44,232 nt of DNA. It comes from an uncultured Piscirickettsiaceae bacterium. Lineage in GTDB: Bacteria; Pseudomonadota; Gammaproteobacteria; GCF-002020875. The stretch spans positions 1 through 44,232 of the forward strand of contig CAYQFH010000001.1 of NCBI GenBank assembly GCA_964416755.1, given 5' to 3'. Positions 3 through 3,501 of the stretch are shown in pieces. Both the position numbers and the translations under genes were made by a program. Each line of letters starts with the position of its first letter. Within the stretch, counting starts at the first letter, position 1. Under the pieces are notes generated by a model that did not search any database, was not told the origin of the DNA, and saw only the letters and a list, made by a program, of their open reading frames with translations.

Positions 3-1565
3 CAGGACTCCCATCTGATTGGCCAGTTTGGTGTCGGCTTCTACTCCTCCTTTATTGTGGCCGACAGGGTGACGGTAGAGACTCGTCGTGCCGGATTGAC
101 CTCTGAACATGGTGTGCGTTGGGAATCTTCTGGCGAGGGTGACTACACGCTGGAGACTATCGACAAGCCGCGTCGTGGTACCCGGATCACTATGCATCTG
201 CGCGATGACGAGGAGGAGTTCCTCGACAACTGGAAGCTGAAGTCACTGATCCACAAATATTCCGAACACATCACCTTGCCGATCATGATGGAGCCAGATG
301 CGCCGCCTCCTGCTGAGGAGGGTGAAGAGCCGAAGGAGATGGAGCCGTGGGAGCAGGTCAACAAGGCGACGGCACTCTGGAGCATGAACCGCAACGAAAT
401 CTCCGAGGAGGAGTACAAGGAGTTTTACAAGAGTGTTGGTCATGATTGGCAGGATCCGATGGAGTGGGTGCATGCGCGGGTTGAGGGTAATCTTGAATAT
501 ACCCAGCTGCTCTATGTTCCTTCCAAGGCACCTTTTGATCTCAATGATCGTGAACGTTCACATGGCATCAAGCTCTATGTGCGCCGTGTCTTCATTATGG
601 AGGATACCGAGAAGCTGATGCCCACCTACATGCGCTTTGTGCGTGGTGTCATCGACTCCAACGACCTGCCGCTCAATGTCTCGCGCGAGATTCTGCAGAG
701 CAGTAAGATTGTCGACCAGATCAAGAAGGGCTCTACCAAGAAGGTGCTTGGTATGTTGGAAGGAATCGCCAAGCAAGGTGAGGAGGAGTATGCCAAGTTC
801 TGGAGTGAATTTGGCCCGGTTTTCAAGGAGGGGCTGATCGAGGACACCAACAATCAGGAACGTATCGCCAAACTTTGCCGTTTTGCCACCTCCGAGAGTG
901 AGGGCACCGACCAGAATGTCTCGCTCGAGACCTATGTTGAGCGGATGAAAGAGGGACAGAACAAGATCTACTTCATCACTGGTGAGAGCTACAACGCAGC
1001 CAAAAACAGCCCGCACCTCGAAGTCTTCAAGAAGAAGGGGATTGAGGTAGTGTTGCTTACCGATCATGTGGACGAGTGGGTGGTTAACCATCTGCGTGAG
1101 TTTGATGGCAAGTCCCTGGTCTCGGTCACTCAGGGTGATCTGGATCTTGGTGAGCTGGAGGATGAGGAAGAGAAGGAGGAGCTGAAGAAAGAGGAGGAGA
1201 CCTTCAAGAATCTGATCGAGCAGATGAAGGGGGTGCTGGGCGAAGAGGTGGAGGATATCCGCGTCACCAACCGCCTGACCGACTCTCCTGCCTGTCTGGT
1301 GGCTGGTGCTGGTGGTATGGATGCCAACATGGAGCGCATCATGAAGAGCATGGGGCAGGAGATTCCAAGCACCAAGCGCATCATGGAGATCAATGTGGAG
1401 CATCCGCTGGTTGAGCGTCTACAGAACGAGCAGGATGAAGAGCGCTTCGCGGACTGGAGCCGTATCCTGTTTGATCAATCCCTGCTGGCCGAGGGGAGTC
1501 AGCTGGATGATCCGGCCAGCTTTACCCGTCGCCTGAACGGGTTGTTGCAGACACTTGCTGGATAA
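3..1565 (+). CDS. htpG: Hsp90 chaperone HtpG (5' end outside window)
   Basis: The frame is open from position 3 (QDSHLIGQFGVGFYSSFIVAD), giving the Hsp90 GQFGVGFYS motif. It also has IKLYVRRVFI, GVIDSNDLPLNVSREILQ and the SP(H)LE motif. TAA stop at 1563-1565. Confidence 0.98.
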   Translation, partial: QDSHLIGQFGVGFYSSFIVADRVTVETRRAGLTSEHGVRWESSGEGDYTLETIDKPRRGTRITMHLRDDEEEFLDNWKLKSLIHKYSEHITLPIMMEPDAPPPAEEGEEPKEMEPWEQVNKATALWSMNRNEISEEEYKEFYKSVGHDWQDPMEWVHARVEGNLEYTQLLYVPSKAPFDLNDRERSHGIKLYVRRVFIMEDTEKLMPTYMRFVRGVIDSNDLPLNVSREILQSSKIVDQIKKGSTKKVLGMLEGIAKQGEEEYAKFWSEFGPVFKEGLIEDTNNQERIAKLCRFATSESEGTDQNVSLETYVERMKEGQNKIYFITGESYNAAKNSPHLEVFKKKGIEVVLLTDHVDEWVVNHLREFDGKSLVSVTQGDLDLGELEDEEEKEELKKEEETFKNLIEQMKGVLGEEVEDIRVTNRLTDSPACLVAGAGGMDANMERIMKSMGQEIPSTKRIMEINVEHPLVERLQNEQDEERFADWSRILFDQSLLAEGSQLDDPASFTRRLNGLLQTLAG

Positions 1566-3261
1566 CACAGCAACAGCAATCTCGCGCAGAGACGCAGAGA
1601 CGCAGAGAACAGCAGACACCAATTGCTGTTACTTTGGGTCTCTGCGTTTTTTTGTTGAGATACTTGATTTTAAAGGTGGAAAATACTCTTTAGGTCTGAC
1701 AGATATCGAAAGGCAATCAGTATTTGTAGAGGGCAAAAAAAAAATCAATAAGCCCTTCTCTGCGTCTCTGCGTCTCTGCGCGAGACTGCTTTTGCTGTTA
1801 TCTGTTCAGCAAGTTGCACATGCTGATCTGCAATCCGATATTGACGCCATCATCGACTCCCCCAAGACCCCGGCCGCACTCTGGGGGATCCGTATTGAAG
1901 AGAGCGATTCCGACACCGTGCTCTACTCCCGCCATGGGGATACTCCGTTTGTTCCTGCATCGGTCAACAAGCTGGTCTCGACGGCTGTAGCGCTGGATCG
2001 ACTGGGGCCCGACTACACCTTTGAGACCCACCTCCGCTTCCCAACTGCAGAGATTCCAGCGGATGGTGTCATTCGTGGGGATCTGCAGATCATTGGCGGA
2101 GGGGATCCGACCTTGGGAACAGCCGAGGGGGCAACGGGGCGAAAGTTTCTGCAGCAGTGGGTCAAGCGGCTGAAGAAGGAGGGGGTCAAACGGATCAATG
2201 GCCATATTGTTGGGGTGGATGACATCTTTGTCGAAGAGCCGCTGGGGCAGGGGTGGGCCTGGGATGATGAGCAATATGCCTTCTCGGCAGAGTCTTCCGG
2301 GTTGACGATCCATGGGGGGACCGCAGGTTACCGTATCGAGGGGAATAAAAAACAGCGCCTGAGAAGGAAGCAGATCCACCTCTATCCGGAGAATGAGTAT
2401 CTCAATACCCATGTACGGATCACAGATGAGAAGCGTCAGGTACAGATCACACGGCGGCGGGGCACCAACCATTTTGTCATCGAGGTGCCGGAGTCGATGC
2501 GGCGCAATCCGCCCATGTCGGGCAAGGTGACGGTCAAGAACCCGACTGATTGGACCGCCACCCTGTTCAAACAGGCACTGGAGCAGGCGGGTATTGAGGT
2601 AAAGGGAAAGGCGGTCGATAGTGACTACCTGCGTGGGTTTGAGCCAGCGACGGGAATGGTCTGGACCCACCACTCCAAACCGTTGAAGGAGATTCTGTCG
2701 CTGGCCAATAAACGCAGTATCAATTTGGTGGCTGAGCATCTGCTGCGAGCCAGCGGGATACAGCGAGATCAGAGTGGTGCAGTTACACAGGCAGGATCAG
2801 TTCAGCGTGGACTGCAGCAGACCACAAAGCTGCTGAAGGGGTGGGAGGTCGCGCCACACCGTTACAAGGTGGTGGACGGTTCCGGACTCTCTCGCTATAA
2901 CCTGATTCGACCGGAAGATCTGGTGAAATTGTTGAAAGGGATGGCAGCGCACCCACAGGCAGAGGTCTACCGTGACTCACTGGCCCGCTCTGGCAAGGAT
3001 GGGACGTTGACCTGGCGCCTGCGTGAGACTCCGCTGGAGGGAAAGGTATGGGCCAAGACTGGTACACTCTCCTCTATTCGGGCGATTGCCGGATACTTGA
3101 AAACGCCAAAAGGGAAGGAGTTGACCTTCGCCATTTTGGTGAATAACTACGCTTCAGGCAGCCGCAAGATCCGAAATCGCATCGACAGCATACTATTGAA
3201 GGCGGCAGAGTGGGCAGATAAGAAAAAACCAAAGAAGAGCAAGAAGCGTAAGGAGAAGTAG
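1555..3261 (+). CDS. dacB: D-alanyl-D-alanine carboxypeptidase/endopeptidase PBP4 (peptidase S13); start codon uncertain
   Basis: SxxK (PASVNKL), GGGDPTL, GWAWDD, SxN (SINLVAE), DGSGLSRYN and KTG motifs. A signal-like segment RLLLLLSVQQVAHA precedes the mature domain. No in-frame ATG lies before it, only the TTG at 1555 and a TTG inside the hydrophobic stretch. Confidence 0.92.
   Translation: MLDNTATAISRRDAETQRTADTNCCYFGSLRFFVEILDFKGGKYSLGLTDIERQSVFVEGKKKINKPFSASLRLCARLLLLLSVQQVAHADLQSDIDAIIDSPKTPAALWGIRIEESDSDTVLYSRHGDTPFVPASVNKLVSTAVALDRLGPDYTFETHLRFPTAEIPADGVIRGDLQIIGGGDPTLGTAEGATGRKFLQQWVKRLKKEGVKRINGHIVGVDDIFVEEPLGQGWAWDDEQYAFSAESSGLTIHGGTAGYRIEGNKKQRLRRKQIHLYPENEYLNTHVRITDEKRQVQITRRRGTNHFVIEVPESMRRNPPMSGKVTVKNPTDWTATLFKQALEQAGIEVKGKAVDSDYLRGFEPATGMVWTHHSKPLKEILSLANKRSINLVAEHLLRASGIQRDQSGAVTQAGSVQRGLQQTTKLLKGWEVAPHRYKVVDGSGLSRYNLIRPEDLVKLLKGMAAHPQAEVYRDSLARSGKDGTLTWRLRETPLEGKVWAKTGTLSSIRAIAGYLKTPKGKELTFAILVNNYASGSRKIRNRIDSILLKAAEWADKKKPKKSKKRKEK
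1567..1798. repeat. Long inverted repeat built of tandem CGCAGAGA units (REP/MITE-like element)
   Basis: 1580-1609 TCTCGCGCAGAGACGCAGAGACGCAGAGAA is the exact reverse complement of 1756-1785. The match extends to 43 bp with 2 mismatches (1567-1609 vs 1756-1798). The interior is AT-rich, with an extra GTCTCTGCG copy at 1638-1646. Confidence 0.9.
1592..1653 (+). terminator. Possible intrinsic terminator after htpG
   Basis: ACGCAGAGAC (1592-1601) can pair with GTCTCTGCGT (1638-1647), with an inner AACAGCA/TGCTGTT stem and a T7 run at 1647-1653. The loop region is atypically large. Confidence 0.4.
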
Positions 3262-3501
3262 ATGGAGCTGGCTGAGATCAAACAGCGTATTGAAGAGGGC
3301 ATTCCCGGATCTGAAGCGATCCTCAGCGGGGATGGGTGTAACTGTGAAGCAACGGTGATTAGCGATAGCTTTGAGGGACAAGGGTTGTTGGCTCAGCAGC
3401 GTGCAGTCATGGCGACGGTCAATGATGTGATTGCCAGTGGAGAGCTGCATGCGTTGGCGATCAAAACTTATACGCAGAAGTCATGGGATAGTCAAGCCTG
3501 A
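3262..3501 (+). CDS. BolA/IbaG family protein
   Basis: 79 aa with GDGC..EATVISDSFEG and GELHALAIKT, the BolA-family signature. Abuts the dacB stop. Confidence 0.92.
   Translation: MELAEIKQRIEEGIPGSEAILSGDGCNCEATVISDSFEGQGLLAQQRAVMATVNDVIASGELHALAIKTYTQKSWDSQA

Follow-up and report, generated by a model that had tools for sequence, protein, structure and literature searches.

In the 23S rRNA genes of Coxiella and Leptospira, intervening sequences consist of an open reading frame bracketed by inverted repeats, which can form a long stem in the transcript. The element that we describe here, at the htpG-dacB junction of an uncultured marine Piscirickettsiaceae bacterium, belongs to a family that likewise holds a small gene or a spacer within inverted repeats, but it does not lie in an rRNA gene, and the four-helix-bundle family typical of such intervening sequences was not found with its repeat word. 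REP and REPIN sequences, which go with the RAYT enzyme (Y1 HUH), share with it dispersed, short extragenic palindromes built as inverted doublets and a tie to one repeat-flanked small enzyme gene. However, their enzyme is a Y1 transposase, whereas here it is a PD-(D/E)XK-fold GxxExxY protein and the arms are tandem arrays of an 8-nt word. The genome's two PF01797 genes (on C42 and C29) have no arm-like match around them, and no association with RAYT was found. Rickettsia palindromic elements (RPEs), as characterized in an extract of PMC10969869, are like the window element in being short palindromes that sit in frame within genes and are translated with the host protein, as is predicted for the element here. 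This likeness is one of description: RPEs are specific to Rickettsia, measure about 150 bp, and have a conserved interior and peptide, whereas here only the arms are conserved, the interiors are unrelated, the family spans many phyla, and the insertions seen lie in N-terminal leaders predicted to be cleaved. As with RPEs, insertion is in frame, in that the frame stays open through the element both here and in a lipoprotein-like gene on C159. Correia elements and other MITEs, as treated in the same extract (PMC10969869), have in common with the window element terminal inverted repeats, a gene-adjacent position, promoter- or terminator-like features, and RNA stems. Unlike in those elements, no target-site duplication, conserved interior, or related insertion sequence was seen here, and the arm spacing is variable. 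A full-text search of a limited literature set found no published description of these repeats or of repeat-flanked GxxExxY genes.

The window, by which we mean the whole 44,232-nt stretch of DNA analyzed, opens within htpG. An inverted-repeat search of the window returned two 43-nt arms (1567-1609 and 1756-1798) that are 95% complementary, with 2 mismatches, and lie 146 nt apart. Read from the sequence, they share a perfect 30-nt core (1580-1609 against 1756-1785), and each carries three tandem CGCAGAGA units, so the inverted repeat noticed by an earlier sequence-only reading is real. The further outer complementarity that it had described (1561-1567 with 1796-1802 and 1553-1560 with 1807-1814) is present in the sequence and is paired in the minimum-energy fold. 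The element begins 2 nt past the htpG stop, and its arms are free of stop codons in all frames. With up to 2 mismatches allowed, the window has five occurrences of the 15-mer CGCAGAGACGCAGAG, where 0.11 would be expected; 0 of 100 shuffles reached this count. The features of the junction are as follows, with G numbers denoting same-genus genomes.

3-1565, + strand: htpG, its 5' end cut by the window, with its stop TAA at 1563-1565 (Pfam HSP90, E 4e-145).
1553-1814, + strand: largest extent of the long-range stem; in read-through RNA, both TTG 1555 and the codons of the signal peptide would be sequestered by it (RNA fold).
1555-1557, + strand: TTG, the most likely dacB start, 8 nt ahead of the htpG stop in the +1 frame (relatives and open frame).
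1567-1609, + strand: left arm, made up in this order of an outer flank of AACAGC type, CTCGCG, and three CGCAGAGA units (1585-1608; nhmmer, E 1e-10).
1591-1653, + strand: terminator-like hairpin formed by units 2-3 of the left arm together with a partial copy of the arm in the interior (1632-1647), with a T7 run behind it (1647-1653; RNA fold).
1610-1755, + strand: locus-specific interior, in the dacB frame (sequence, promoter scan, and comparison with relatives).
1655-1684, + strand: weak promoter-like site in the interior (promoter scan).
Around 1698-1724, + strand: imperfect palindrome in the interior.
1735-1744, + strand: A10 run in the interior.
1744-1752, + strand: conserved ATCAATAAG in the interior (comparison with relatives).
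1756-1798, + strand: right arm, which in the dacB frame reads FSASLRLCAR and then a Leu run (repeat search and nhmmer).
1768-1770, + strand: CTG at the column of an in-frame TTG in G009 and G005, a near-cognate alternative start (alignment).
1780-1782, + strand: GCG at the column of an in-frame GTG in G009, G013, G006, and G004 (alignment).
1783-1824, + strand: putative basic residue, h-region, and c-region (RLLLLLSVQQVAHA), with predicted cleavage after 1824 (inspection).
1792-1794, + strand: TTG, the only canonical in-frame start past 1555, from which the leader would be 11 residues (ORF list).
1825-3261, + strand: mature DacB, a PBP4-type Peptidase_S13, with its stop codon (Pfam, E 7e-86).

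Independent Logan contigs agree with this sequence: those of one run (X1) reproduce 1756-2200 with 0 differences, and those of a run from a different study (X4) reproduce 1637-1881 with 1 difference, at 1873. Because the right arm is reproduced, its odd codons are not a consensus error. Among the four runs examined, no contig spans 1613-1637, a join that is carried only by shared gene order and a homologous interior in two same-genus genomes. Contigs of the four runs also contain two joints that skip from 1613 to 1757/1758 with short sides of 27-28 nt, which most likely stem from other copies of the family.

The window element is a gene-less copy of a dispersed palindromic family, and the genome-wide count that had been proposed as a check bears out a multicopy, nonautonomous repeat. 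In the 2.75-Mb assembly, the exact 15-mer CGCAGAGACGCAGAG is found 18 times on 7 contigs, the CGCAGAGA-type 8-mer word 216 times (about 94 expected), and the core in 29 arms at up to 2 mismatches; 28 of the 37 nhmmer matches have an E below 1e-5, giving about 28 strong arms. Most strong arms form convergent pairs around unrelated interiors of 57-174 nt, and arm-to-arm spacing within one genome ranges from about 10 to 250 nt. All-against-all blastn of 12 pair interiors gave a single intercopy match, of 10 nt (E 0.04-0.09), and the interior in the window had no similarity to those of the 11 other copies. Codirectional genes flank 12 of 16 sites, one copy sits between convergent genes, and another is a tight hairpin with almost no interior. 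Repeat searches showed no direct repeat or target-site duplication at the element ends. The site is filled in the window genome, G009, and G005, and it lacks the element or has a short hairpin in G013, G006, G008, and others, a distribution that fits gain and loss alike.

The sequence-only reading had described similar arrays as often flanking GxxExxY or four-helix-bundle genes. The first half of that statement holds. There are 14 genes of the GxxExxY family (PF13366), in 8 of 15 same-genus genomes, and inverted word arrays flank all 14; at 4 of these loci (L200, L201, L202, and L205), each in a different genome, the arms have the same word and CTCGCG boundary as the window. The window arm matches L202 over 31 nt (90%, E 7e-6); for the G009 arm, the match to L202 is 35 nt long and 100% identical. 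An arm at a contig end (C44:20517-20557) lies where same-genus genomes have a GxxExxY cassette. The arms of this assembly's only PF13366 gene are of CACAGAG, not CGCAGAG, which counts against the leader explanation given below. Arrays of CGCAGAG/CGCAAAG were found at at least 121 loci in named genomes of many phyla, with a convergent partner within the locus at 74 of the 121 loci listed; among 49 sampled loci from other phyla, 2 (L046 and L085) have a PF13366 gene inside such arms. The second half was not borne out for this word: PF05635 had 0 matches in the sampled loci, and the genome's one such gene bears GAGTGAT arrays. These loci add a genomic context to the large GxxExxY (PDDEXK_3) family, for which an extract of PMC3424549 gives the function as "Unknown". 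The family words are tandem 8-nt CGCAGAG/CGCAAAG, with CGCAGAG dominant here and CGCAAAG in G009. The interior was also considered as a decayed GxxExxY gene, but tblastn with the 14 genus proteins found nothing, the best E against the window being about 0.4.

At this junction, the dacB frame is open from 1537 and, as had been claimed, runs without a stop through the whole element. Alignment of the junction in relatives, another of the proposed checks, showed 0 dacB-frame stops in the htpG-dacB spacers (79-293 nt) of 15 of 15 genomes, short-spacer relatives without the long stem included, against 0-6 in the other two frames; the genomes are related, so that these counts overstate independence. 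Shuffling yields an open frame with a probability of 0.0038 in the window, 0.006 in G009, and 0.0016 in G005, and these comparisons indicate that the frame is constrained. Spacer length equals 1 modulo 3 in 10 of the 15 genomes, whose spacers have 8 distinct lengths between 79 and 253 nt. Nine of the 15 have an in-frame TTG at -11, overlapping the last htpG codons; the htpG Leu codon that creates it is CTT in 13 of 15, and neighboring third positions are variable. In G010 and G011, an ATG lies 10-12 nt past the htpG stop, so the whole short spacer there encodes the signal peptide. The frame offset differs in G001, G005, G007, and G016, where the htpG-end TTG is out of frame; thus, members of the group do not all share one start site. 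In the window, from 1555 onward, the reported lack of an ATG upstream of the mature domain was borne out and extends to GTG, leaving TTG 1555 and TTG 1792 as the only canonical starts. The latter was rejected because its 11-residue leader, with a 4-residue hydrophobic core, is too short for a signal peptide.

The explanation that we favor, and think somewhat better than even, is that TTG 1555 is the dacB start codon, with the element as a translated part of a leader that is cleaved off after AHA. Ribosomes would start at the TTG overlapping the last htpG codons and would translate the left arm, interior, and right arm as a long leader. A point against this start is that no Shine-Dalgarno sequence precedes the TTG, which would make initiation reliant on coupling to htpG termination. 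The final basic residues, at the end of the n-region, and the hydrophobic core of the h-region would come from the right arm together with its flank, in support of what the earlier reading had proposed for the right arm. This is the only signal peptide discernible by inspection (LRLCAR LLLLLSV QQVAHA/D, with an n-region of about 70 residues if the start is 1555). Signal peptidase would then remove the entire 90-residue leader after AHA (1824). The Peptidase_S13 match begins at residue 92, counted from 1555, directly past the predicted AHA/D site, and mature DacB shares 63-83% identity with the corresponding proteins of the other 14 genus genomes. Sec substrates do not usually have leaders as long as 90 residues, with about 70 before the h-region, and this counts against the explanation. 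The interior peptide of the window shows little conservation relative to G009, and therefore it is the openness of the frame, not the peptide, that argues for translation. Compared with the 85-nt spacers of relatives, the element adds 168 nt (56 codons); because the arms are stop free in every frame, whole codons are added, and the leader would be discarded after export, such an insertion could be tolerated. The element is thus probably translated as part of a cleaved export signal. The sequence-only reading had called it exapted coding sequence, of which the open in-frame sequence stands, whereas exaptation goes beyond the data, since a tolerated insertion in a cleaved leader fits equally. 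The htpG-dacB gap is effectively nonexistent, a new result here, and as a probable coding region it changes the annotation of dacB and probably of many other genes.

A rather unlikely alternative is that dacB is transcribed from a promoter in the element and starts at a near-cognate codon, CTG 1768 or ATC 1744 (10 nt past GAGGG), in which case only the right arm would be coding and the openness upstream would be incidental. The columns of CTG 1768 and GCG 1780 hold an in-frame TTG in G009 and G005 and a GTG in G009, G005 has a AAGAGGGGA insert just ahead of its TTG, and a CTG start would give a textbook 19-residue signal peptide. Furthermore, a terminator-like hairpin lies inside the proposed coding region, with the promoter-like site downstream of it, an order that would also be compatible with a transcript beginning internally and a start codon farther downstream, and four same-genus genomes have only a conserved ATA at the expected apbE start, which hints that noncanonical starts are tolerated. 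However, a rare start codon would be needed, and CTG has no nearby ribosome-binding site. Neither the 15 stop-free spacers and their one-register lengths nor the C159 gene, with its ancestral ATG upstream of an open element, would be explained.

We consider it distinctly improbable that the inverted repeat acts mainly as RNA, with a stem of about 70 bp that hides the dacB start and signal codons or is cut by RNase III and so tunes or uncouples dacB expression, as for Correia elements. Folding 1540-1830, as had been suggested, gave -135.2 kcal/mol (z -11.3), with a stem that exceeds the family consensus and covers the htpG stop and TTG 1555. The extract of PMC10969869 reports that RNase III cuts at Correia repeats. 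Wherever the left-arm cores of the window and G009 differ (five differences), the right arms carry the matching change and complementarity is kept, but these changes track each genome's family consensus, for which homogenization at the DNA level suffices. Such concerted evolution of a repeat family offers a route to altered expression of housekeeping genes, and variants of the repeat create or destroy host start codons. The local stem at 1591-1648 is G+C rich (-36.9 kcal/mol, z -7.9) and is followed by a U-run, features predicted of an intrinsic terminator; the hairpin is kept in G009 and G005, and a simple terminator scan of the window did not list it. During transcription it would form before the long stem, which speaks against a role for the latter. 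The open frame persists in short-spacer relatives that have no such stem, and a permissive Rfam search of 1400-2000 returned only chance-level microRNA-like matches, all below gathering scores. The suggested coupling of dacB to htpG by an RNA structure is accounted for more simply by a start codon that overlaps the htpG stop. Under the favored explanation of a translated leader, some htpG transcripts would end at the terminator-like hairpin, and only the remainder would extend into dacB.

It is very improbable that dacB has lost its start here, by TTG to CTG and GTG to GCG changes in the arm, and is untranslated: both candidate starts of the G009 arm are indeed missing from the window, but the 480-residue mature region is intact, is 83% identical to its closest relative, and has no internal stop, the leader frame is open (P = 0.004 by shuffling), and a canonical TTG stands at 1555. 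Barely credible is a multilocus invertible switch in which a recombinase flips promoter-bearing interiors between the arms, for although conserved arms around variable 57-174-nt interiors, often upstream of genes, recall invertible-promoter families, the interior does not differ in orientation among the window, G009, and G005, the copy between convergent genes and the nearly interior-less hairpin do not fit, the dacB and C159 interiors are open in one orientation only, and contigs of four runs, which are blind to rare forms, contained no strand-changing joint.

The probable use of an arm as signal-peptide coding sequence extends beyond dacB. All four exported-protein genes that adjoin an arm (dacB, apbE, that of a cd1-type cytochrome, and the C159 gene) read it in the same phase, as SASLRLCA(R/S), so that dacB is joined by three others; in the 10 other genes downstream of an arm, a canonical start lies at the arm or beyond it. 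In the C159 gene, the ancestral ATG is kept, overlapping the upstream stop, and the element comes directly after it, in frame and free of stops over its whole length; where relatives lack the element, the same ATG leads straight into the same residues. Gene callers that choose a nearby ATG would place the start wrongly in all four genes. We tentatively suggest, at somewhat less than an even chance, that cleaved leaders are safe harbors for a pan-bacterial palindromic element linked to the GxxExxY nuclease. Its arms would in one reading phase encode a signal-peptide-like segment (a basic residue, LC(A/G), and a Leu-rich flank) and in some variants supply a TTG or GTG start codon, so that selfish DNA would have repeatedly rebuilt or lengthened the signal peptides of unrelated exported proteins in several phyla. 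This gives a testable rule for how a widespread palindromic element survives within genes, namely, in leaders that are cut off after export. Among the loci listed from other phyla, the same arm phase was found at three by a scripted criterion (L020, L053, and L110) and at a fourth by eye (L033), and genuine Pfam domains follow the arm in L020 and L110.

The inverted repeat described by the sequence-only reading between htpG and the mature domain of dacB is present, with arms 95% complementary and three tandem CGCAGAGA units per arm. Five copies of the 15-mer at ≤2 mismatches lie in the window, where 0.11 would be expected. The features of the junction, in coordinates of the forward strand, are as follows.

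1555, TTG, proposed start of dacB, overlapping the end of htpG
1563-1565, TAA, stop of htpG (Pfam HSP90)
1567-1609 and 1756-1798, left and right arms of the inverted repeat, 43 nt each
1580-1609 and 1756-1785, perfect 30-nt core of the arms, read from the sequence
1591-1648, predicted hairpin followed by T7
3259-3501, BolA-like gene directly 3' of the dacB stop

The ORF downstream of htpG encodes a Peptidase_S13 (PBP4-type) protein whose domain model begins directly after ...VAHA/D. The BolA-like ATG comes right after the dacB TAG, so that htpG, dacB and bolA are closely packed in a single direction. The organism is metagenome-derived only. Logan contigs matched 1756-2200 with 0 differences and 1637-1881 with 1 difference, at 1873. 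These contigs come from two different studies, and the right arm's unusual codons are therefore no assembly artefact.

DacB was found in 16/16 other family genomes searched, 14 of these within the genus, and the junction 5' of dacB was read in all 16. The htpG end was located by pattern in 15 of 17 genomes (not in the relatives G012 and G015). The claim that the dacB frame runs through the element was borne out: in 15/15 genomes the spacer, 79 to 293 nt long, has no stop in the dacB frame, and the other two frames contain 0 to 6. The chance of an open frame upon shuffling was 0.0038 for the window, 0.006 for G009 and 0.0016 for G005 (the two relatives with the same element and a homologous interior), and 0.08 to 0.53 for shorter spacers. 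Spacer length was 1 mod 3 in 10/15 genomes, with eight different lengths, and an in-frame TTG lay 11 nt before the end of the htpG stop in 9/15, although the relatives are kin and counts among them overstate independence. This TTG arises from an htpG Leu codon conserved as CTT in 13/15 genomes, although nearby third positions vary; G010 and G011 have an ATG 10 to 12 nt past the htpG stop. From the stop-free frame, the length register and the in-frame TTG or ATG starts, we infer that the spacer belongs to the 5' end of the dacB coding sequence. Where the spacer is short, it encodes, by inspection, a signal peptide of 28 to 34 residues with a basic n-region. The same start in the window, TTG 1555, gives a 90-residue leader in which the element is an extra 168 nt (56 codons). 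A spacer of 85 nt with a short terminator-like hairpin, ending CTCACG...CGTGAG, was found in G013, G006 and G008. In G007 this position is taken by another inverted repeat, 21 nt long and of the GGGGTCAGGCCCCC type, which brackets the spacer without interrupting the dacB frame. The ATCAATAA motif immediately 5' of its right arm also occurs in the window, G009 and G005.

Translation of dacB would thus most likely begin at TTG 1555, coupled to htpG termination; the element would be read through as an extended n-region, and the leader would be cut off by signal peptidase. The insertion would probably be tolerated because no reading frame of the arms contains a stop and because the leader does not remain on the mature protein. 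The only other canonical in-frame start in the window, at 1792, was rejected because the leader left is too short to work.

We examined 14 genes downstream of an arm in this genome. Four encode exported proteins (dacB, apbE, a cd1-type cytochrome and a lipoprotein-like gene on contig C159), and in 4/4 the arm is read in the identical phase, giving ...SASLRLCA(R/S) and then a hydrophobic run; the remaining 10 have a canonical start at the arm or beyond. At the arm start column, the apbE and cytochrome genes have a TTG variant, and the C159 gene has a CTG variant as in dacB. In the C159 gene the ancestral ATG survives, overlapping the preceding stop, and is followed by the whole element in frame; in G002, G001 and G013, which lack the element there, the ATG leads directly into the same residues. 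The whole element is open in the gene's frame only in dacB and the C159 gene, so that absence of a canonical arm start coincides with a fully open element in 2/2 genes versus 0/9 others. An internal promoter with a near-cognate dacB start at CTG 1768 or ATC 1744 is possible but doubtful. The G009 right arm has an in-frame TTG and an in-frame GTG where the window columns are CTG (1768) and GCG (1780). The left-arm cores of the two genomes differ at five positions, all mirrored in the right arms, and the dominant word is CGCAGAG here and CGCAAAG in G009. The start codon difference tracks each genome's word variant, and repeat homogenisation can therefore create or remove host-gene start codons. 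An arm-derived segment is also found in ApbE of several relatives, with ATG, TTG or GTG starts. At apbE in G010, G012, G011 and G007 (stored loci L158, L160, L161 and L162), a short open leader lacks ATG, GTG and TTG; a conserved ATA stands at the expected start with GGAG a few bases 5', which suggests near-cognate initiation in this group.

At the RNA level, folding of 1540-1830 confirmed that a long stem is possible in read-through RNA (-135.2 kcal/mol, z -11.3), and the outer complementarities proposed earlier (1553-1567 with 1796-1814) are indeed present, with the minimum-energy fold pairing them. That this stem acts mainly as RNA is rather unlikely as the chief explanation and is compatible with translation from TTG 1555. 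Units 2 and 3 of the left arm, together with an internal partial arm copy (1632-1647), form the hairpin at 1591-1648 (-36.9 kcal/mol, z -7.9), and this terminator-like hairpin is kept in G009 and G005. It would pair first during transcription, ahead of the long stem. It may limit how much transcription continues from htpG, which is highly expressed, into dacB, and ribosomes initiating at 1555 could hinder its folding. A dead dacB start is very unlikely, and an invertible switch is scarcely credible.

Two further features lie in the interior. An imperfect palindrome at 1698-1724, centred on GATATCGA, is kept in the window and G009, where the interior is otherwise variable, and may be a protein-binding site. 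An A10 run at 1735-1744 within the proposed leader frame reads KKK and is not conserved in G009 or G005. Runs this long are slippage-prone, and slippage could turn the leader frame on or off.

The element belongs to a dispersed family, as had been supposed. In the assembly (224 contigs, 2.75 Mb, 53% G+C), the exact 15-mer has 18 occurrences on 7 contigs, the 16-nt arm core is found at 29 places at ≤2 mismatches, and an arm profile search returned 37 places, 28 of them with E<1e-5. The arm consensus runs from an AACAGC-type outer flank through CTCGCG to three CGCA(G/A)AGN units, and convergent pairs are the usual arrangement. Of 16 listed sites, 12 lie between co-directional housekeeping genes (prpD-icd, ccmB-ccmC, ahcY-metF, bioB-bioF-like and rnfG-rnfE, for example), 1 between convergent genes and 3 at contig ends. 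Among 12 interiors compared (57 to 174 nt), there was no mutual similarity; the arms alone make up the conserved unit. Arms stand at the ends of several contigs (C8:232, C44:20517-20557, C113:48 and C193:15), and thus the family breaks the assembly. Because the C44-end arm sits where same-genus genomes have a CGCAAAG-armed GxxExxY cassette, a GxxExxY gene copy may be missing from this assembly.

The association with GxxExxY (PF13366, PDDEXK_3) genes named in the sequence-only reading proved correct within the genus. There are 14 such genes in 8/15 genomes, and inverted short-word arrays flank all 14. Window-type arms surround four (L200, L201, L202 and L205), which have the CGCAAAG word and, as in the window element, the CTC(A/G)CG boundary and the AACAGC flank; blastn against L202 aligned 31 nt of the window arm at 90% and 35 nt of the G009 arm at 100%. 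The window element is therefore a gene-less copy of one cassette flavour's arms. Three-unit arm matches number 20 here and 15 in G009, are rarer in G007, G008, G006, G005 and G011, and were not found in 8 other genomes of the genus.

We also scanned one genome per species with a 22-nt degenerate three-unit pattern and obtained at least 121 loci; the phyla among the matches listed include Acidobacteriota, Planctomycetota, Cyanobacteria, Chloroflexota, Verrucomicrobiota, Bacteroidota, Spirochaetes, Proteobacteria and others. Among the matches listed, 74/121 have a convergent partner inside the stored locus, with inner gaps of 15 to 447 nt. An ORF scan covered 131 inner-side ORFs at 49 loci (47 partnerless in the stored locus and the two with the widest gaps, L046 and L079). 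Among the matches listed, PDDEXK_3 was found at 2 of these 49 (L046 and L085), and the four-helix-bundle family, also named in the sequence-only reading, at 0/49. By a scripted criterion, 5/134 arms in other phyla, among the matches listed, enter a signal-peptide-like stretch (L020, L053, L110, L114 and L118), and L033 was picked by eye; these signal-peptide readings are by inspection. Downstream in-frame Pfam domains are NMT1 (L020), Cyc-maltodext_N (L110) and VIT (L114).

For the effect on the host gene, the closest match is the Rickettsia palindromic elements, described in an excerpt of PMC10969869 as in-frame insertions in ORFs. The genome layout resembles that of REP/REPIN sequences with RAYT genes, but the Y1 transposase link that defines them was not found in this genome; the gene associated with window-type arms has a different fold, and PMC3424549 lists its function as unknown. 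Classical MITEs have a conserved interior and a target-site duplication, whereas the window family has neither.

The assembly's sole PF13366 gene (C129:4050-4530), between an FKBP-like gene and prfC, has CACAGAG arms, with three words per side at 9-nt spacing and the AACAGC outer flank in common; the same cassette occupies the same site in G007 and G006. A four-helix-bundle (PF05635) gene at C28:15718-16035, with about five tandem GAGTGAT words before it and weak inverted copies after, looks like another word-flanked small gene of a different protein family.
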